From the NCBI RefSeq assembly GCF_000011805.1, contig NC_006841.2: a DNA stretch of 24,000 nucleotides. The stretch is one strand, 5' to 3'. Under the pieces are notes generated by a model that was not told where the DNA came from, made no database searches, and saw only the letters and a list, made by a program, of their open reading frames with translations. Positions 389 to 9,810 of this stretch are shown here, in pieces. The first letter of the stretch is position 1; each line of letters starts with the position of its first letter. The DNA is from Aliivibrio fischeri ES114 (lineage in GTDB: Bacteria > Pseudomonadota > Gammaproteobacteria > Enterobacterales > Vibrionaceae). Made by a program: the position numbers and the translations under genes.

Positions 389-509
389 AACGCCTGCATA
401 ACACGTTTATTACTATGACGACTTAGCAGAATTTTACTGCCTTAAACATCAAACTCAAAGACAAACCTACAATGCCGAATGTAATAAATCGTGTTGATTG
501 CTTTGTTAA
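387..509 (-). repeat. Integron attC site (cassette 13)
   Basis: The plus strand reads TTAACGCCTGCATAACACGTTTATTAC...GTAATAAATCGTGTTGATTGCTTTGTTAA. It is 123 bp, belongs to the same family as the other 12 repeats, and its ends form an imperfect inverted repeat. Confidence 0.88.
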
Positions 510-516
510 ATGCGAT

Positions 517-969
517 TTAAAGTAATCTACAAACTAACCGCAACATATCTTTATGCTGAATACCATTTTCATAGATGTCTTCATCATAATTATCGAGAAA
601 GAAATCTTTTACGATTGAGTCAACTCGAAACCCATGCCGTTGATAAAACGACAATTGATAGCCAAAAGTTCCCGTTCCTAGCTCTACGTTACTGTAGCCA
701 TTCAAAGCTAATTCGTTTAATACAAATTTGAGGAGATTTGAGCCAATACCTTTTTGCTGATATTCCGGAGCTATCGCAATATTGTAGATTTCGGCCACAG
801 AAGAACTAAGCTGCTTACTAATACAAATACCGACTATTTCATGATTTTTAAAAGCACCGAAACAGTCAGAACCATTCAGATACTTATTAATGCATTCTTG
901 AGATGGATCTGCTTCAAGTAATAATTTCATTGGGGCTAAATCTGATGATATTTTTTTAAACTCAATCAA
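517..969 (-). CDS. GNAT family N-acetyltransferase (B. subtilis YvbK-like)
   Basis: 150 aa. It has the acetyl-CoA motif QQKGIGSNLL and the blocks LLLEADPS, GTGTFGYQLSFYQRHGFR and DFFLDNYDEDIYENGIQHKDMLRL, typical of YvbK-type GNATs as I recall them. TTG start with AGAGGA 7 nt upstream. Confidence 0.85.
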   Translation of the reverse strand: MIEFKKISSDLAPMKLLLEADPSQECINKYLNGSDCFGAFKNHEIVGICISKQLSSSVAEIYNIAIAPEYQQKGIGSNLLKFVLNELALNGYSNVELGTGTFGYQLSFYQRHGFRVDSIVKDFFLDNYDEDIYENGIQHKDMLRLVCRLL

Positions 970-999
970 ACCATTTTCCTCTCAAAGTCTTTGAAGCAT

Positions 1000-1122
1000 T
1001 TAACGCCTGCATAACACGTTTGCTACTATGCAGACCTAGCTGAATTTTACTGCCTTAATCACTGAAACTAAAGGCAAACCGACAACGCCGAATGTAGCAA
1101 ATCGTGTTTATGCATTTGTTAT
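1000..1122 (-). repeat. Integron attC site (cassette 12)
   Basis: TTAACGCCTGCATAACACGTTTGCTAC...GTAGCAAATCGTGTTTATGCATTTGTTAT, 123 bp. The TAA stop of the 1119 ORF lies inside its terminal core. Confidence 0.9.
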
Positions 1123-1610
1123 GTGCATTTCTCAAGTGAAGTCAGTTGTAAATAAGAACATTCTAATTTTTCAACAAAGGATTCGCTTATATCAGGAAAT
1201 CCTTTAGTAAACTTCTCAACATATGACACTTTAAAAAGATCATATAAAAAGCTACTTTCTATTTTCGCAACATGAATTGGGGAATAAGGTCTAAAAGAAA
1301 TAATAAAATCATCAAGCTCATCGTCATCAATTAAGTTATATTGATCTCCAGTAATATCAATTACCATCCCCTCAATTTCTATCCAATAATGCGTTATAGA
1401 ACAATTATCAGGACGAGCTCCTCCGACACCTATAATTTCAATATCAGGATAAAGTTTAAGAAAATGATACACAAGAATCATTGATGTCAATTTGCAGCTC
1501 ATTACTGGAAAATCGTCTATTACCAACTCTGTTGCTTCAGGATCACATGATTGAATCAGTTTTCTAAACCTAATAGCTTCATTCAGTATTACATTCCGCT
1601 CTATACTCAC
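1119..1610 (-). CDS. Hypothetical cassette protein (163 aa from GTG; ordered Cys...His...Asp residues)
   Basis: The ORF track gives 1119-1628 with an ATG formed by the attC junction (GTTATG). A strong AAGGAGG lies 4 nt before an in-frame GTG at 1610, so 1610 is the preferred start. No family recognised. FPVMSCKLTS ... SITHYWIEIEG ... IDITGDQ resembles a papain/transglutaminase-like Cys-His-Asp order (inference only). Confidence 0.6.
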   Translation of the reverse strand: MSIERNVILNEAIRFRKLIQSCDPEATELVIDDFPVMSCKLTSMILVYHFLKLYPDIEIIGVGGARPDNCSITHYWIEIEGMVIDITGDQYNLIDDDELDDFIISFRPYSPIHVAKIESSFLYDLFKVSYVEKFTKGFPDISESFVEKLECSYLQLTSLEKCT

Positions 1611-1626
1611 ATTGCCTCCTTTGCAC

Positions 1627-1749
1627 ATAACGCCTGCATAACACGTTTGCTACGATACAGACTTACCTGAATTTTACTGCCTTAATCACTGAAACTAAAG
1701 GCAAACTGACAACGCCGAGTGTAGCAAATCGTGTTGATGCATTTGTTAT
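1627..1749 (-). repeat. Integron attC site (cassette 11)
   Basis: ATAACGCCTGCATAACACGTTTGCTAC...GTAGCAAATCGTGTTGATGCATTTGTTAT, 123 bp. The stop of the 1746 ORF lies inside its terminal core. Confidence 0.9.
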
Positions 1750-2633
1750 ATTGCTGGTCTATGGTCTTCTTTGTTAGGAGGGATCATTGCTGATGTCCAT
1801 TTTAATATTACTGATAATCCATTCCAATTTCGCAGTCTTTCTTGATAAAGAAGTTCAGTAACATAATTACTTAATTTTTCGTCATCAAGCTCAGGGTTAA
1901 GATTATTTTCTTTAATAACATGAAATAATGCTGTCGCTCTTTTTTTACGAAACTTAACATCAGATTTATGAGAAAAAAGAGAAACCGCAGGCATAATAAA
2001 CATACCTGTAACCACAACTACAATAAGAACAAAACTAAGCATAAACAACACTAACCAAGAAGTAGTTTTAATTGAATCTCGACTACTTGAAGGACTATTA
2101 TCTATGTCATATTCTCTAGTATCAATACCAATTGCAGACACTTTTACTTTGGGTTCTTCTGTTCCTTCAAAAAGAAGCCGCAATTGTAATCCCGGTTCAG
2201 GTCCATCAACTCGATTAATTGCTTGAGCAATAAAATTGAAATAGTATTTGTTACCATCAAATACCATTTTCTTTGTTTGTATAACAGAGTCTGTCGTTTC
2301 GTGCTCACCTACTACCGCATGTGCTAATACCTTAAATTCTTTTACATTTTCTGGCTCTATAATTATAGTCACTGGCAGGTCAAGTAAATCTTTAGTCGAA
2401 AAGTTAACCAACGATACATACATGATGCCAATCTTTTCTTTTTCTGCATTATTAACGATTAGTCTTATTTCATCATCAGGAAACTTAGGCTTTGAGAAAT
2501 AATTACTTTCAAATTTCTTATGGATATCTAATTTTGGAACTTTAACTTGCTCCAAATATAGTAAATAACCAATCACCGCAGTAAAAATTGCAGTTAAAGT
2601 ACAAGAGAAAACGACTCTCCATATTCCATTCAT
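1746..2633 (-). CDS. Hypothetical two-pass membrane protein (295 aa)
   Basis: It fills its cassette. N-terminal TM (VVFSCTLTAIFTAVIGYLLYL), a ~160-aa beta-rich middle domain, a second TM (WLVLFMLSFVLIVVVVTGMFIMPAV) and a ~80-aa helical C-terminal tail. AAGGAG lies 10 nt upstream of the ATG. No recognisable family. Confidence 0.7.
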   Translation of the reverse strand: MNGIWRVVFSCTLTAIFTAVIGYLLYLEQVKVPKLDIHKKFESNYFSKPKFPDDEIRLIVNNAEKEKIGIMYVSLVNFSTKDLLDLPVTIIIEPENVKEFKVLAHAVVGEHETTDSVIQTKKMVFDGNKYYFNFIAQAINRVDGPEPGLQLRLLFEGTEEPKVKVSAIGIDTREYDIDNSPSSSRDSIKTTSWLVLFMLSFVLIVVVVTGMFIMPAVSLFSHKSDVKFRKKRATALFHVIKENNLNPELDDEKLSNYVTELLYQERLRNWNGLSVILKWTSAMIPPNKEDHRPAI

Positions 2634-2668
2634 CGATTTTAAACTCCTTCTATAATCTCAAGAGCAAT

Positions 2669-2771
2669 ATAACGCCACAATAACACGTGCGAAAGACTGA
2701 CTTACAAAACCAATTATACTCCAAACCGCGAATGCCGAATGTAAATAGCATCGTGTTGATTGCTTTGTTAT
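2669..2771 (-). repeat. Integron attC site, short 103-bp subtype (cassette 10)
   Basis: ATAACGCCACAATAACACGTGCGAAAG...GTAAATAGCATCGTGTTGATTGCTTTGTTAT. It has the same terminal cores as the other attC sites but a shorter, different centre. Its closest relative is the attC at 5608-5710. Confidence 0.85.
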
Positions 2772-3230
2772 ACGAGCCTTGCTTTCGCTCCAATTAACTT
2801 GGTAAAGAACTGATTTACCAAGATTTGCTGTAAACTGAGTTTAATTAGACTGGCTCAATTAAGCGAGCAAAATATCCAACCAACAACAATAATTGTGAAA
2901 CGAAACAATCCCTTTTTCTTACACTATTTGTACGATTTGGTTTCATCAACTTCTGAGCTAATAAACCAAATATCCTAACCACAATTGGGATTGAAAATGC
3001 TGCGAGGAAAACACTGATGCAGGCTAAAATGAGGCAAAACCATGAACAATTGAAGCGTAAATTAGTTTCTGAAACGCCTGAATTTGGGGCAATAATAGTT
3101 CAATGCCGAACCTGATGAAACGAACACTAAAAGGCAACAAAGAAAAAGGAAAACCACCTTACTTTCACACCTAAAAAACTAATGGTTCAATCGCTGAACT
3201 GAACCAAAAAACTGCATTCTCAGAGTTCGT
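2772..3230 (-). other. ORF-less integron cassette, paralog A (candidate structured non-coding element)
   Basis: 459 bp between two attC sites with no track ORF. It is alignable along its length to 5711-6168, with substitutions and indels. Conserved hairpins at 2798-2822, 2935-2971 and 3184-3205. Confidence 0.6.
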
Positions 3231-3351
3231 ATAACGCCTGCATAACACGTTTGCTACCGTGCAGATTAAGATCAAATTTACCACTTAAAACAGTAAACTC
3301 AAAGAAACCTAGAATGCCGAGTGTAGCAAATCGTGTTGATGCATTTGTTAT
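3231..3351 (-). repeat. Integron attC site (cassette 9)
   Basis: ATAACGCCTGCATAACACGTTTGCTAC...GTAGCAAATCGTGTTGATGCATTTGTTAT, 121 bp. Confidence 0.9.
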
Positions 3352-3359
3352 GCCTTAAC

Positions 3360-3884
3360 TCAGTAAAGTTTCAATTCTCTTAACAACTTAACTGCTGCAT
3401 CTTTCGGCTGTATATCACTCGTATCTACTGACGCATCGTATTTTATGAAATTATGAACCAATGGATACTCCGATTCAGCTAATCCGATTGCACGATCACC
3501 ACGCGCTAATTCTCGTGCAATACAGACATCTAATCTACACATTACCTTGACTCGAACTACGTTAAATCCACTCAAAGACTTTTCTAGTGCATTAATTTCG
3601 TCTTCATTTATCCAAGCATTATCAATAATAAGTCTACAACCAGCTTCTAATAGTCCTTTAACACAATTATGGTAACCTTCGGTTAATTGCCCATAATCAT
3701 ACCCAGAACGACTTATTGGATCCCCTGCTATCATTCTCCTGAGGTCTGTTGGAGGTAAAGCATATAAAACACTATCAATACTAAAATTTAGATATTGTAT
3801 TGATAATAATTCTTGTAACTCTTTAGCTAAGCTAGTTTTTCCAGAACTTCCTGTTCCATTAAGCAAGATTATATCTGGGTACAT
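3360..3884 (-). CDS. Chloramphenicol phosphotransferase-like (CPT family) P-loop kinase
   Basis: 174 aa. It has the N-terminal Walker A ILLNGTGSSGKTS, plus FSIDS, LIIDNAW and ARELARGDRAIGLAE blocks that mirror the Streptomyces CPT layout as I recall it. AAGGA RBS 8 nt upstream. Confidence 0.82.
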   Translation of the reverse strand: MYPDIILLNGTGSSGKTSLAKELQELLSIQYLNFSIDSVLYALPPTDLRRMIAGDPISRSGYDYGQLTEGYHNCVKGLLEAGCRLIIDNAWINEDEINALEKSLSGFNVVRVKVMCRLDVCIARELARGDRAIGLAESEYPLVHNFIKYDASVDTSDIQPKDAAVKLLRELKLY

Positions 3885-3910
3885 TGTAAGATTCCTTTCT
3901 CAAAAGAGGC

Positions 3911-4033
3911 ATAACGCCGCAATAACACGTTTATTACTACGACAACTTAGCTAAATTTTACTGCCTTAAACACTGAAACCAAAGAGAAACCTACAACGCC
4001 GAATGTAATAAATCGTGTTGATTACTTTGTTAT
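3911..4033 (-). repeat. Integron attC site (cassette 8)
   Basis: ATAACGCCGCAATAACACGTTTATTAC...GTAATAAATCGTGTTGATTACTTTGTTAT, 123 bp. Confidence 0.9.
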
Positions 4034-4138
4034 GCGGCACAAATAAAATTAATTGTGTGGAACCAAGATACTACCCGCAGTTACATTAACCAAAAACGGT
4101 TACGATACTTAAAATTTGCACAAAACTAAGAGAACAGA
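4034..4138 (+). promoter_or_regulatory. Conserved upstream region (putative own promoter/5' UTR) of the reverse-oriented membrane-protein gene
   Basis: This 105 bp differs at only 5 positions from its paralog at 6292-6396. It contains TTAACC-N18-TAAAAT and TTACAT-N18-ATACTT sigma70-like combinations. A gene antisense to the cassette direction cannot use Pc. Confidence 0.35.
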
Positions 4139-4441
4139 ATGGATGCTATTGCTCATTTAATTATCATTTTAGGGAATCCATTTGTATATAAAATTGGACA
4201 TCTAATTATTTCAATTTTAAGCATTGGTAAATTGTCCATTCAACCATTACCAACTAAATTTTCCGCTAATTTTGTGCAAGCGTTTGACGAAGATAAAATC
4301 GTAGAAAGTCAAAATAAACAAAACTACTCAATCTCATATGTAATTGCCCTTACCATTGGTTACGCTGTAACTATAGCTATCTTTGGAACCCTATTATTTT
4401 ATAATATCGATAGTTTTATTGAAGCTCAATCATCGAACTAA
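4139..4441 (+). CDS. Small two-TM membrane protein (100 aa), reverse-oriented in cassette, copy 1
   Basis: Two hydrophobic segments (AHLIIILGNPFVYKIGHLIISILSI and YVIALTIGYAVTIAIFGTLLFY). Compared with the paralog at 6397-6699 there is no indel, 9 silent codon changes and 11 replacements (hand count), consistent with purifying selection. Confidence 0.72.
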   Translation: MDAIAHLIIILGNPFVYKIGHLIISILSIGKLSIQPLPTKFSANFVQAFDEDKIVESQNKQNYSISYVIALTIGYAVTIAIFGTLLFYNIDSFIEAQSSN

Positions 4442-4449
4442 AAACCCGC

Positions 4450-4572
4450 ATAACGCCGCAATAACACGTTTATTACTACGACGACTTAGCTGAATTTTAC
4501 CGCCTTAAACACCTAAACCAAAGACAAACCTACAACGCCGAATGTAATAAATCGTGTTGATTGCTTTGTTAT
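4450..4572 (-). repeat. Integron attC site (cassette 7)
   Basis: ATAACGCCGCAATAACACGTTTATTAC...GTAATAAATCGTGTTGATTGCTTTGTTAT. Positions 4451-4572 are base-for-base identical to 6170-6291. Confidence 0.9.
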
Positions 4573-4632
4573 ATTGCCTATTGATAAACGACATGAAATC
4601 GTTCCAATACAAGAACCATGTCCTCACTAGGC

Positions 4633-5043
4633 TTAATAATTTAACTCTGAACATTCAGCAGCAAAGAAACGCCAATGAGCTTCACGCCACCATTTTAATG
4701 AACAGTCGCCCTCGCCTTCTACATGAGCAAACTCAGCCGTAACTTCGTTATATTTACACGTTTCAACTGAATCAATTTCAATGATACAAATTGGTTTCCC
4801 ATTCCAATCAACGACTACTTGTAAATGACCAACGGTTGGCATTGGTTCTTCACCAGATTCATACCAAACATTTAAGCTACAAGTTGCTGTCTTTTGACCA
4901 ATTCGGATTAATTCTGCGCATAAATTGGCATTATGCTCATCAGCACAGAAATAGTCTGAACTGAATGATTGATACTTTTCACGTTTAATTTCAGAAAGTG
5001 AGCTTAGATACTGATCCAAGTAGATTTGAGACTGTTCTTCCAT
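4633..5043 (-). CDS. ASCH domain protein (YhfF-like, PUA-like fold)
   Basis: 136 aa. Pattern FCADEHNANLCAELIRIGQKTATCSL ... VTAEFAHVEGEGDCSLKWWREAHWRFF is typical of ASCH/YhfF proteins. AGAGGA RBS 4-5 nt upstream. Confidence 0.82.
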   Translation of the reverse strand: MEEQSQIYLDQYLSSLSEIKREKYQSFSSDYFCADEHNANLCAELIRIGQKTATCSLNVWYESGEEPMPTVGHLQVVVDWNGKPICIIEIDSVETCKYNEVTAEFAHVEGEGDCSLKWWREAHWRFFAAECSELNY

Positions 5044-5069
5044 GAAATCCTCTTAACTATTTTCGCAAT

Positions 5070-5190
5070 ATAACACCTGCATAACACGTTTGCTACCATG
5101 CAGATTAAGCTTAAATTTACCACTTAACGCGGCAAACCCAAAGAAATCTAGAATGCCGAATGTAGCAAATCGTGTTGATGCATTTGTTAT
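5070..5190 (-). repeat. Integron attC site (cassette 6)
   Basis: ATAACACCTGCATAACACGTTTGCTAC...GTAGCAAATCGTGTTGATGCATTTGTTAT, 121 bp. Confidence 0.9.
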
Positions 5191-5280
5191 ACGTGTCTAC
5201 TTTAGTTTGAATAAGCATATATACAAAACTTAATATAAATTACATCTTATCACAGCTAAAACAACACAAGAGATATGAAT

Positions 5281-5312
5281 AAAAAAAGGGCTCGATGACT
5301 GGAATCGAACCC
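5281..5312 (-). terminator. Rho-independent terminator (module 1)
   Basis: The minus strand reads GGGTTCGA-ttccagtca-TCGAGCCC followed by TTTTTTT. The 8-bp stem includes a U-G wobble that would be a C-A mismatch if transcribed from the plus strand. Confidence 0.78.
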
Positions 5313-5436
5313 TGAACGTGAAATGCCTGTCTACAGCAGCACAAAAATTATGAGGAGCTCCAGTTTATTACTGGAATCACTCTTAACCAACTGTAAAATA
5401 AGACAGGTTTGTTTTTAACGCTACCCCCCTCGGCAC
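5281..5436 (-). ncRNA. Candidate small RNA module 1 (5' end undefined)
   Basis: No credible ORF. It shares conserved blocks with module 2 (ATTTTACAGTT, GTAATAAA, GTGYTGCTGTAGACARGCATTTCAYGT) and ends in its own terminator. Confidence 0.4.
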
Positions 5437-5471
5437 AAAAAAAAGGGACTCATTGGCTAAAATTGAGTCCC
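5437..5471 (-). terminator. Rho-independent terminator (module 2)
   Basis: The minus strand reads GGGACTCA-attttagccaa-TGAGTCCC followed by TTTTTTTT. The 8-bp stem is perfect. Confidence 0.82.
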
Positions 5472-5607
5472 AGACATGAAATGCTTGTCTACAGCAACAC
5501 ATAAGTAAGGAGTGACTACGATTTTATTACATTGACACTGCCTTACTAACTGTAAAATCAGGTAGGTTACTATTAAATATTTATAATTTGGACGTCATTG
5601 ATTTCGT
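5437..5607 (-). ncRNA. Candidate small RNA module 2 (5' end undefined)
   Basis: Tandem paralog of module 1 with the same conserved blocks but a completely different terminator stem sequence. No credible ORF. Confidence 0.4.
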
Positions 5608-5710
5608 ATAACGCCGCAATAACACGTGCGAACGACTTACTTTCCAAACCAATTATACTTCAAACCACAAACGCCGAGTGTAATTAGCATCGTGTTGATT
5701 GCTTTGTTAC
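5608..5710 (-). repeat. Integron attC site, short 103-bp subtype (cassette 5)
   Basis: ATAACGCCGCAATAACACGTGCGAACG...GTAATTAGCATCGTGTTGATTGCTTTGTTAC. Paralog of the attC at 2669-2771. Confidence 0.85.
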
Positions 5711-6168
5711 ACGATCTTTGTCAACGCTTCGCTTTAATTGGTAAAGAACTGATTTACCAATAATATTTAGAAACCAATTCTAAATTACAAAAGCTAATTT
5801 AGCGAACAAAAGAACCGTTCAACTACAAAAACTGCGAAACGAAACAATCCTTTTTCTAGCACCATTTGTACGATTTAGTATCAGCAAGTTTGGAGCTGAT
5901 AAATCAAATATCTTTGCCACAATTGGGATTGATAATGTTGTGAGGAAAACACTGATGCAGGATAAAATGAGGCATAACCAAAGAACAATTGAAGCGTAAA
6001 AATATCTCTGAAACGCCTGAACTTAGATCGACAATAGTCAATTGCCGAACCAAATGAAATGAAAGCTAAAAGGAAACAAAGAAGAAGGAAAACTACCCTA
6101 CTTTAACATCTAAAAATCGAATGGTTCTATCGCTGAACTGAGCCAAAAAACTGCAATCTTTAGTTCGT
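5711..6168 (-). other. ORF-less integron cassette, paralog B (candidate structured non-coding element)
   Basis: 458 bp with no track ORF, alignable to 2772-3230. Hairpins at 5737-5761, 5879-5901 (extendable to 5873-5909) and 6123-6144. Confidence 0.6.
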
Positions 6169-6291
6169 GTAACGCCGCAATAACACGTTTATTACTACGA
6201 CGACTTAGCTGAATTTTACCGCCTTAAACACCTAAACCAAAGACAAACCTACAACGCCGAATGTAATAAATCGTGTTGATTGCTTTGTTAT
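6169..6291 (-). repeat. Integron attC site (cassette 4)
   Basis: GTAACGCCGCAATAACACGTTTATTAC...GTAATAAATCGTGTTGATTGCTTTGTTAT. Positions 6170-6291 are identical to 4451-4572. Confidence 0.9.
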
Positions 6292-6396
6292 GCGGCACAA
6301 ATAAAATTAATAGTGTGGAACCAAGGTACTACCCACAGTTACATTAACCAAAAATGGTTACGATACTTAAAACTTGCACAAAACTAAGAGAACAGA
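6292..6396 (+). promoter_or_regulatory. Conserved upstream region of the reverse-oriented membrane-protein gene, copy 2
   Basis: Paralog of 4034-4138 with 5 differences in 105 bp. This non-coding stretch is at least as conserved as the coding region that follows it. Confidence 0.35.
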
Positions 6397-6699
6397 ATGG
6401 ATGCTATTGCTCATTTAATTATCATTTTAGGGAATCCATTTGCATATAAAATTGGACACCTAATTATTTCAATTTTAAGTCTTGGTAAATTGTCCATTCA
6501 ACCATTACCAACTAAATTTTCTGCTAATTTCGTGCAAGCCTTTGACGAAGATAAGGTCGTAGAAAACCAAAATAAACAAAACTACTCAATATCATATGGA
6601 GTTACCCTTTCCATTGGTTACGCTGTAACTATAGCTATCCTTGGAACCCTATTATTTTATAATATTGATAGTTTTATTGAAGCTCAAACATCAGAATAA
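6397..6699 (+). CDS. Small two-TM membrane protein (100 aa), reverse-oriented in cassette, copy 2
   Basis: Paralog of 4139-4441. Same length and same TM layout. Confidence 0.72.
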   Translation: MDAIAHLIIILGNPFAYKIGHLIISILSLGKLSIQPLPTKFSANFVQAFDEDKVVENQNKQNYSISYGVTLSIGYAVTIAILGTLLFYNIDSFIEAQTSE

Positions 6700-6708
6700 A
6701 ACACCCGC

Positions 6709-6829
6709 ATAACGCCTGCATAACACGTTTGCTACCATGTAGATTAAGTCCAAATTTACCACTAAACACGGTAAACCCAAAGAAACCTAGAATGCCGAAT
6801 GTAGCAAATCGTGTTGATGCATTTGTTAT
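6709..6829 (-). repeat. Integron attC site (cassette 3)
   Basis: ATAACGCCTGCATAACACGTTTGCTAC...GTAGCAAATCGTGTTGATGCATTTGTTAT, 121 bp. Confidence 0.9.
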
Positions 6830-6840
6830 GTGCGATATTT

Positions 6841-7239
6841 CTACGCATTCCATTCTTTGTTTTGAAGCACAATTCTATAACCATCAATATCTTCAAATGT
6901 TTTACCAACAATATCCCAATATTTATTATAAGAAGAAACTATTTCAAAACCGGCTATCACCATTCTTTCACAGCATTCCACCCAAATATCATTATCAGAA
7001 AAATAGAATACAAGTAGATTATCTTGAGTTGGAGCTTTACCTACCATTTTCCCTTTATGGTGAGTAAACTCTAAGTGATAATTATGCTTTTCATGACCAA
7101 TTATTGAGCCATCAAAACCATTGTGATCTTCAAAAGTTCCTAATAACTGAAATCCCAAACCATTCACATACATCTCTGTAATTTTATGAAGATTATCAGT
7201 TGGTCGAGCAACTCTCATTTTTGAAGTTTGAGGTATCAT
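6841..7239 (-). CDS. VOC / glyoxalase-bleomycin resistance fold protein (YycE-like)
   Basis: The MRVARPTDNL...GLGF...HLEFTHH...FEDIDGYRIVL pattern indicates a VOC fold. The track ORF starts at 7266 with an ATG created by the attC junction. The ATG at 7239 has AAGGAAA 5 nt upstream and is preferred; 7218 is another possible start. Confidence 0.82.
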   Translation of the reverse strand: MIPQTSKMRVARPTDNLHKITEMYVNGLGFQLLGTFEDHNGFDGSIIGHEKHNYHLEFTHHKGKMVGKAPTQDNLLVFYFSDNDIWVECCERMVIAGFEIVSSYNKYWDIVGKTFEDIDGYRIVLQNKEWNA

Positions 7240-7264
7240 GAAATTTCCTTTTCCTTTTTTGCAC

Positions 7265-7386
7265 ATAACGCCTGCATAACACGTTTGCTACTATGCAATT
7301 ATACTTAATATTGACGCCTTAAAACGAGAAACACCCGGCAAACTGAGATTGCCGAGTGTAGTAAATCGTGTTGATGCATTTGTTAT
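7265..7386 (-). repeat. Integron attC site (cassette 2)
   Basis: ATAACGCCTGCATAACACGTTTGCTAC...GTAGTAAATCGTGTTGATGCATTTGTTAT, 122 bp. Confidence 0.9.
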
Positions 7387-7509
7387 AACGCTGCCAATAC
7401 TTTTCACCCATCCTATTAGGCATTGAGTATAAAGGATAATATCTATCACTATGCGACTTGAATTTTTTAAGGCATTCACACTAAATGATAGCTCAAAACT
7501 CTTTACCCT

Positions 7510-7881
7510 TTAGTAAAGTCTTTTTAGCCCTTCATCACAAGCATACATAGATTTTGAGTTGCCTTTATAGCCATAGTTCGTCTTATATTCCCATTTATAA
7601 CCAACATATCCACCATAGCTATTTTTCGCATTGTAACGAATGCAATATCCCTTATTTTCTTCAACTGGTTTCTTCACTGAAGGCTCCCAATATTGAAAGA
7701 TATCAGCAAACTTAGCGCTATCCGGATCTTTTAGTGATGATTTCAAATCATCTAATGCCTTTACAATTTCTATTGGTGGCTTAGACATATCAATCTTTTC
7801 ATATGTAAGGTTTTCACTAGAAGTCGACTTACAACCTAAAAGGGATAAAGTGAACATTACAACTAATATTAATTTCTTCAT
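7510..7881 (-). CDS. Lipoprotein of unknown function (123 aa)
   Basis: Signal peptide with lipobox MKKLILVVMFTLSLLGC. GGAGGA RBS 5 nt upstream. Confidence 0.75.
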   Translation of the reverse strand: MKKLILVVMFTLSLLGCKSTSSENLTYEKIDMSKPPIEIVKALDDLKSSLKDPDSAKFADIFQYWEPSVKKPVEENKGYCIRYNAKNSYGGYVGYKWEYKTNYGYKGNSKSMYACDEGLKRLY

Positions 7882-7961
7882 TGATTCCTCCGCTTAAAAT
7901 ATAAAGTATATGGTACCATATATTTCACTGAAGTCTATTATGCGCTACGACTACATGCGTT

Positions 7962-8082
7962 ATAACGCCTGCATAACACGTTTACTACCAAGCAATTATA
8001 CTTAAAATTGACGCATTAAAACGAGAAACACCCGACAACCTGAGATGCCGAGTGTAGTAAATCGTGTTGATGCAATTGTTAT
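7962..8082 (-). repeat. Integron attC site (cassette 1)
   Basis: ATAACGCCTGCATAACACGTTTACTAC...GTAGTAAATCGTGTTGATGCAATTGTTAT, 121 bp. The stop of the 8079 ORF lies inside its terminal core. Confidence 0.9.
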
Positions 8083-8826: not shown

Positions 8827-9810
8827 ATGGATATCCCATTAGATCTTAAACCAGATTCACAACGCTTCACCGATCAACTTCGAATTTTCATTCGAACACG
8901 TGCGCTAGCCTATAATACAGAGAAACAATACATATATTGGATAAGTTGCTTTATTCGTCATAACAACTACACATCAAAAGACGAAATTAACGCCTTTGAT
9001 ATACCAGCCTACCTTGAGCACTTAGTCGTAAAACAGAACGTATCGCCAAATACCCAAAAAACCGCGTTAAACGCACTCATATTTTTATGTCGCGAATACC
9101 TACAACAATCAGTCGATAACCTTGAATTTAAACGTTCTAAAAAAGCCACTAAATTGCCAACTGTATTTACTCATGGTGAAGCCATCTCCGTTATAAATGA
9201 ACTTAACCACCCCACTAAGCTGATTGCACAACTTATGTATGGGAGCGGTTTACGAATAAACGAAGCATTAAGGCTAAGAGTAGATGACATCGATCTTATC
9301 CATAAAACCATCACCATAAGAAATGGGAAAGGTAATAAAGACAGGACTACTGTACTACCCGAGAGCATCATTCCAGAGCTTAAAACGCAACTCGAGTTTG
9401 TAAAACAACAACATAAAATGGATGCAATAAACGGGGATGATGAAGTTTATCTACCTAATGCCATTGCAAAAAAATACCCTCACAGAGCAAAAAGTTATGG
9501 TTGGCAATATGTGTTTCCTTCAAAACAGATCAGCAAAGATCCACGTTCAGGTCAGCATCGTCGACACCACATGTTAGATAGAAGCGTTCAAAAACAAGTA
9601 ACCAATGCAATAAAAAAACTTGAGATAGATAAGAAAGCCAGCAGCCACACATTTAGGCATAGCTTTGCGACACGAATTTTAGAACGGGGTGGAGATCTAA
9701 GGACAATACAAGAATTATTGGGTCATTCTGATATCAAAACGACCCAAATTTATACTCACGTAATAGGCTTACACTTCTCAGGAACGAAAAGCCCATTAGA
9801 CTTTGATTAA
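8827..9810 (+). CDS. intI: Integron integrase (tyrosine recombinase IntI)
   Basis: 327 aa. Catalytic blocks [25 protein letters not shown] and [15 protein letters not shown] (R-H-R-Y). It also has the IntI-specific additional segment [39 protein letters not shown]. The gene is divergent from the attC array. Confidence 0.95.

Follow-up and report, generated by a model that had tools for sequence, protein, structure and literature searches.

A gene-less cassette in the integron of Aliivibrio fischeri ES114

The window, a stretch of 24,000 nt of A. fischeri ES114 (G000:C2:726192-750191), carries an integrase gene, intI, at 8827-9810 on the plus strand (domains Phage_integrase and SAM_4), together with thirteen attC sites of one family lying in a single orientation from 490 to 8082. 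As the orientation of these sites is uniform, the cassettes have the minus strand as their reading strand and point away from intI. The cassette under study, copy A, is the tenth from attI when counted by attC sites. Its limits were set from the G|TT crossover points, and the interval 2772-3230 of the preliminary description is its non-attC content. An array adjoining intI, uniformly oriented attC sites, G|TTRRRY core sites and a 3' attC with R''/R' and L''/L' boxes were all identified, in keeping with an integron cassette. The features discussed below are the following.

2673-3234, minus strand: whole cassette copy A (F2), 562 nt, starting at TTAT... just past the G|TT crossover upstream of it and reaching as far as the G in its own R' core
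2669-2771, minus strand: short attC of copy A, with R'' ATAAC at 2767-2771 and R' GTTAT at 2669-2673; the plus strand is the bottom strand
2799-2819, minus strand: GGTAAAT followed by CAGTTCTTTACCAA, a second, subfamily-specific -10-like element and a box conserved across subfamilies
2838-2843, minus strand: -10-like hexamer TAAACT (sense 392-397), proposed core of the sense promoter
2890-3150, minus strand: conserved core of the Aliivibrio family (sense 85-345), from per-column conservation in the alignment
3000-3150, minus strand: module of ~150 nt common to other Vibrionaceae genera, with the motifs TTCTTTG, TTCGTT, TCGGCAAT, AAGTTC, GCTTCAA and TTGCCTCATT; models R1 and R2
3033-3037, minus strand: TTGCC, right arm of a covarying pairing, inside TTGCCTCATT at 3028-3037
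3104-3108, minus strand: left arm of the same pairing, GGCAT in copy A and GGCAA in most copies; overlaps TGCCGAA (3104-3110)
3073-3080, minus strand: CAGGCGTT, an 8-mer shared with the R' end of attC (k-mer comparison; no excess over shuffles)
3115-3174, plus strand: antisense ORF of 19 aa, MKRTLKGNKEKGKPPYFHT, not conserved
3173-3206, minus strand: terminator-like hairpin TGGTTCAGTTCAGCGATTGAACCA followed by TTAGTTTTTT, near the cassette's 5' end; subfamily-specific
5611-6172, minus strand: copy B, a paralog of another subfamily, with the -10-like hexamer TAGAAT at 5777-5782; followed directly by F1

The contents of copies A and B are ~81% identical, and six copies of the family were identified in the ES114 genome, none of the others being >95% identical to copy A. 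The first bases of these cassettes covary with their own R'' box across subfamilies (TTATACG/CGTATAA, TTACACG/CGTGTAA and TTGTGCG/CGCACAA).

Copy A corresponds to a cassette that has already been assayed. From TTATACGAACTCTGAGAATGCAG to the attC its sequence is that of F2 in Supplementary Table S1 of Blanco et al. 2024 (PMC11014356), barring machine-reading errors in the supplement text, while the printed sequence differs from copy B. In that paper, F2 is located between VF_A0655 and VF_A0656 of V. fischeri ES114 and is called a 'promoter cassette'. F3 of the same study is also a family member, being a diverged paralog of F2 (78% identity) from another subfamily. F1 is the cassette at 5191-5610 (minus strand), which has promoters on both strands and lies directly downstream of copy B, such that two gene-less cassettes adjoin. 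Using a plasmid reporter in V. cholerae, sense GFP signals of 27- to 101-fold were described for all three ES114 cassettes; F2 and F3 were among the four cassettes exceeding PcW, both falling between PcW and PcS, and were the two strongest ES114 promoters (PMC11014356). Significant antisense activity was described for F1 only among these three, and no signal was obtained from lacZ fragments of equal size (PMC11014356). Copy A fits the published definition of a promoter cassette in that it has no annotated gene and no ORF of at least 70 codons, its activity following from its identity with the assayed F2 fragment. The paralogy of F2 and F3, the six genomic copies, a -10 hexamer conserved throughout the family and a 5' module common to many of the Vibrio cassettes of that study are not reported in the available parts of the paper (PMC11014356).

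The attC sites following copies A and B had been described as unusually short. They measure 101 nt from TAAC to GTTA (103 nt with the end points used earlier) and are indeed ~18-20 nt shorter than the other eleven attC sites of the window (119-121 nt). Across 20 arrays and contigs, attC lengths are bimodal, at 100-102 and 118-121 nt. As single-stranded DNA the short attC is predicted to form the usual R and L stems, a G of the plus strand being extrahelical; the z-scores of this fold are weak (-0.6 and -1.5). The further suggestion that the cassette possesses its own attC lineage holds as an enrichment, the short attC being found on 75 of 164 family cassettes and 19 of 491 others, but not as an exclusive association. 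The long attC occurs on 89 family cassettes and the short one on 19 unrelated gene cassettes, and the type of attC depends on the subfamily (48 short and 29 long in cluster 5; 7 short and 37 long in cluster 1). As the short attC is thus non-exclusive in both directions and subfamily-dependent, a lineage of its own is an overstatement; content and attC have been reassorted within the family. A promoter-like match (TTCGCA-16-TATATT; 2666-2693, minus strand) was also noted where the short attC ends (3' side) and the following cassette begins, its -10-like hexamer being created by the cassette junction itself.

It had also been suggested that the interior of the cassette holds the relic of a collapsed attC. 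The motifs behind this suggestion are present (AACGCCTG at 3073-3080 and TGCCGAA at 3104-3110), with the same pair occurring in copy B. The corresponding explanation, in which the cassette is a fusion of two older cassettes, draws on a 9-mer (TTCGGCATT) and the 8-mer CAGGCGTT, both common with attC and ~22 nt apart. However, the interior aligns to the short and long attC no better than dinucleotide shuffles do, and the sole borderline score (17 against 12.5 +/- 2.0, with 15 of 300 shuffles as high) falls elsewhere, at sense 236-282. Four other 8-mers are shared with attC at other places, by chance, and an R''-like or L-box partner is absent. Furthermore, Vibrio homologs and several Aliivibrio subtypes lack CAGGCGTT, CATGGATT or TTGAAT taking its place in other subfamilies and genera. 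The other half of the putative relic, TCGGCA, is part of the module conserved across non-coding cassettes of Vibrionaceae. The relic is accordingly rejected, and an origin of the cassette by such a fusion is barely credible.

Family size, dispersal and coding potential

The family was identified in all 13 same-genus genomes searched. A survey of the arrays of five complete relatives and of draft contigs, in which 655 cassettes were delimited by their attC ends, assigned 164 cassettes (25%) to the family; this is an upper estimate, as the draft contigs were picked for having hits, and the share per array ranges from 14 to 35% among six complete arrays. Content length is ~460 nt in 149 of the 164 family cassettes. 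There are 146 unique contents with a mean pairwise divergence of 21%, and the copies are mosaic, consisting of a conserved core (~90%) placed between alternative 5' and 3' modules. In the arrays surveyed, 18 adjacent family pairs were counted against 24.6 +/- 3.7 expected, a borderline result; the family is dispersed, showing no tandem clustering and no clear regularity of spacing. Cassettes with a sense ORF are not enriched downstream of family members (115 of 125, against 312 of 356 elsewhere; p = 0.25).

Near-identical copies of the Aliivibrio type, one or two in each, were found in four other genera (loci L083, L088, L089, L090 and L091), which suggests transfer of the cassette between genera. 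The copy at L091 retains the short attC, with an internal deletion. A further family copy (G002:C2:618205-618663) lies ~160 kb away from the main array of its genome and on the opposite strand.

The preliminary description had held that the coding potential of copy A is not conserved, and this conclusion is strengthened by the 146 unique family copies. The frame of 20 codons at 3115-3174 (ATG at 3115-3117), which encodes the antisense peptide, is stopped in copy B by a TGA at codon 3 (6060-6062), and the 32-codon frame MQAKMRQNHEQL is broken there by an indel of 1 nt. No ORF of at least 50 aa is present within 2772-3230. Stops were found in every one of the six frames among the family copies, variation along the core shows no 3-nt periodicity (146 unique copies, p about 0.5), and pN/pS lies between 0.5 and 0.8 in all six frames of all three regions (Nei-Gojobori, 71 disjoint pairs), such that no frame bears the mark of purifying selection.

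A small protein, for instance the 19-aa peptide of the antisense strand or the product of a short ORF on the sense strand, was considered as an alternative cargo, as was a decayed protein gene. In its favour, ORFs of 50-128 codons are found in many copies, an ORF ends at the stop columns of the antisense peptide in 82 of 146 copies, and some other gene-less cassettes have been described as decayed genes (PMC11014356). The longest of the family ORFs nevertheless have TTG or GTG as start codon, encode a high proportion of F, L, C and S, and occupy one or the other of two sense frames depending on the copy, traits that are expected from a T-rich conserved non-coding strand. Seven of the longest returned no Pfam match at E <= 1, and distant homologs possess no common reading frame on either strand. 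With these frame tests and two published BLASTX/BLASTP surveys the coding question is settled, and a protein product or a decayed gene is very improbable.

The proposed sense promoter

The hexamer at 2838-2843 is TAAACT in 64 copies, TAGAAT in 54 and TAAAAT in 27, with a single exception among the 146 unique copies (TAnnnT in 145). Across all alignment columns, this is the only sense column with TAnnnT in at least 80% of copies. Positions T-12, A-11 and T-7 of a -10 element are key to recognition by sigma-70, and their invariance here, where the other positions vary, is the pattern expected of a selected -10 element. As a -35 element, 126 of 146 copies have TCGCTT at a spacing of 17 nt, which is a weak match. 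Among the distant Vibrio homologs, TAnnnT was found ~44 nt ahead of the attC in 11 of 15 tails, a small set. A scan with consensus sigma-70 elements missed the TAAACT site of copy A and flagged two other matches of 9/12; for copy B, consensus sigma-70 and terminator scans returned nothing.

The 5' ends of F2 transcripts determined by 5'RACE were numbered 239, 408, 430, 440, 455, 466, 474, 490 and 510, most of them falling in the last ~60 nt and the attC (PMC11014356). The RACE numbering could be tied to the sequence within about +/-4 nt (offset ~3 nt), which places end '408' 7-11 nt downstream of TAAACT. Ends '430' and '440' fall within 2799-2819, after GTAAAT; this second element is present in 89 of 146 copies, whereas the box to its right is nearly invariant and is also found in some Vibrio homologs. 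The ends were described by Blanco et al. as dispersed and of equal frequencies, possibly reflecting spurious initiation in AT-rich DNA (PMC11014356).

It is proposed that an internal sense-strand promoter of F2 serves the array. Sigma-70 RNA polymerase would use the TAAACT -10 element at 2838-2843 with its weak -35 element, this being the hexamer probably chosen in the native host, and secondary starts may arise just downstream of it in the F2 subfamily. Transcription would then start within the final ~60 nt of F2, cross the short attC and enter the next cassette (295-aa ORF, 1746-2633). This mechanism was adopted because a single -10 element is conserved throughout the family and published 5' ends of F2 lie nearby.

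Two other elements of the cassette were noted. An antisense TAAAAT within CTAAAATGAGGCAA (~3025-3040, plus strand) is found in 126 of 146 Aliivibrio copies and is not retained by Vibrio homologs. Clusters 5 and 3 have the terminator-like hairpin at 3173-3206 in 78 of their 88 copies, clusters 1 and 2 in 1 of 55, and one stem pair shows C-G/T-A alternation. The hairpin falls short of an intrinsic terminator, having just 3 G-C pairs and a T-run that begins 4 nt past the stem, and as it is nearly absent from clusters 1 and 2 it has no family-wide function.

The conserved module and the role of the cassette

The core of the family was searched for in other genomes using a sequence-only model (R1) and, for the ~150-nt module at 3000-3150, a second model (R2). 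Matches to R1 are of two kinds, near-identical single copies in the four other genera and weak matches of many copies in Vibrio-type genomes, the latter being ORF-less cassettes of ~460 nt as well. R2 identified the module in non-coding cassettes of 42 of the 150 Vibrionaceae genomes searched, representing 5 of 13 genera, often with at least 20 copies per genome. TTGCCTCATT occurs 12 times among the fragments of the table of Blanco et al., one of these being in V. cholerae C2 (PMC11014356). C2 is a distant member that bears the motifs of the module, and native RNA-seq shows transcription rising inside it (PMC11014356). The fragment P1 of V. parahaemolyticus resembles the distant Vibrio members.

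Among 136 unique modules, a single helix reaches both 4 bp or more in length and 85% or more in pairing, namely GGCAA/TTGCC, with arms ~63 nt apart. Two of its pairs covary: the outer pair is GC in 100 modules and AT in 34, while the inner pair is AT in 89, TA in 26 and AA in 18, copy A having T-T at the latter. This covariation amounts to about two independent switches on the tree, and the pairing is suggestive but thin. Two C2-like gene-less cassettes in other genera (L162, ~1330-1640, minus strand; L161, ~1108-1415) contain a tandem internal duplication. The unit that is repeated begins with TCGGCAAT, ends with TTGCCTCATTGA and coincides with the interval that the covarying arms enclose.

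Several other candidate structures were rejected. Global folding of the whole cassette with RNAalifold gave unconvincing folds on both strands, and a helix scan of 98 full cassettes returned short helices only, each backed by one double change or two. In the best local stem (TTTGGTTT/AAACCAAA) disruptions and compensations are equally numerous, a 3' palindrome (TTGGTAAA..TTTACCAA) considered as a conserved hairpin has its left arm changed to GGCAGGG without compensation, and a local hairpin (CGGCAAT-N5-ATTGTCG) has no covariation support. No match to Rfam was obtained in a gathering-threshold scan of the window or in an E-value scan of five distant loci.

Taken together, copy A is best explained as a non-coding cassette of a large mosaic paralogous family that supplies an internal sense promoter to the array, a reading to which a probability of roughly 0.7 is assigned. 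It could instead be a selfish or neutral cassette, amplified because its attC recombines well, homogenised by gene conversion and active as a promoter only through incidental AT-rich initiation. This option was raised by Boucher et al. (PMC1382264) and is consistent with the abundance of the family (~21-25% of cassettes), its mosaic modules, the single near-identical copies in four other genera, the scatter of the F2 5' ends and the lack of bias among downstream cassettes. It is, however, at odds with critical -10 positions that stay invariant while others vary, with the strongest ES114 promoters being the 78%-identical paralogs F2 and F3, and with the silence of lacZ fragments of the same size (PMC11014356). 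In addition, a cross-genus module at 60-70% identity is too old for homogenisation alone, and this explanation is considered unlikely.

The promoter requires ~50 nt, and so leaves ~260 nt upstream at ~90% identity and the cross-genus module unexplained. It is conceivable, though doubtful, that the module is itself a functional nucleic-acid element, either an RNA domain acting in cis on array transcripts or a platform to which a protein of the host or the integron binds, and the true reason why these cassettes are kept, the promoter being one part of it. A more specific version, in which the main cargo is a structured RNA or folded single-stranded DNA closed by GGCAA/TTGCC, acting in cis or as a protein platform with the promoter secondary, is quite unlikely. 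It gains from the survival of a single helix with two covarying pairs, from a G-to-A variant that breaks the local hairpin yet is compensated in the long-range pairing, from the tandem duplication of the arm-bounded unit in two genomes and from the retention of the module in 5 of 13 genera. Against this, the helix is just 5 bp long and closes ~63 nt in which inner helices are unsupported, its covariation goes back to about two switches, and 18 modules (AA) as well as copy A (T-T) are mismatched at one pair. An Rfam match is absent, the energies from RNAalifold are weak and do not differ between the strands, and symmetric half-sites for a protein would give the same signature. The cassette is thus real, under selection and largely explained, with the sense promoter as the preferred account of its role.

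Where a large array is expressed, and where it is not, is decided by internal promoters that mobile cassettes carry, and hence how quickly a host can draw on its stored genes; the F2 cassette already serves as an experimental example of this. What is added here is a defined -10 element that lends itself to testing and is retained by 145 of 146 copies, the recognition that the two strongest promoter cassettes of V. fischeri are paralogs of one family that accounts for roughly one fifth to one quarter of the cassettes in Aliivibrio, and a link to other non-coding cassettes of Vibrionaceae through a conserved module and one covarying pairing. These details are modest and do not overturn the current understanding.

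The proposed promoter resembles PcS of class 1 integrons (TTGACA-N17-TAAACT), which has the same -10 element, TAAACT, as F2 (PcS is given as TCGTAAACT in Supplementary Table S4, PMC11014356). The role of Pc, driving promoterless cassettes, also matches that proposed for F2. Pc differs in being located in the integron platform, inside intI, with a consensus -35 element, whereas the F2 hexamer is on a mobile cassette and has a weak one. ORF-less cassettes with measured promoter activity have reportedly been found in integrons of oral Treponema (Tansirichaiya et al. 2019, Sci Rep). These are gene-less like F2, but as described their host is unrelated, their integron has an atypical layout and their sequences belong to a different family.

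A further precedent is the work of Boucher et al. 2006 (PMC1382264), in which Vibrio non-coding cassettes were described as paralogs that are shared and conserved among species, are not pseudogenes and lack a synonymous-site pattern; selfish, promoter and regulatory RNA hypotheses were put forward for them. The family of copy A shows the same characters, being multi-copy and conserved over its full length, with close homologs in other species and no protein matches. Seven non-coding cassettes were counted in ES114 in that study, a number that the six family copies identified here and F1 fit (PMC1382264). Homologs were described there as either >80% identical or absent, whereas the profile searches used here link the Aliivibrio and Vibrio families via the ~150-nt module at ~60-70% identity. 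Since copy A is F2, and its type of family was described in 2006 (PMC1382264), the element counts as known: its DNA is that of the published F2, gene-less and with the same promoter activity and 5' ends, and the element itself shows no difference (PMC11014356).
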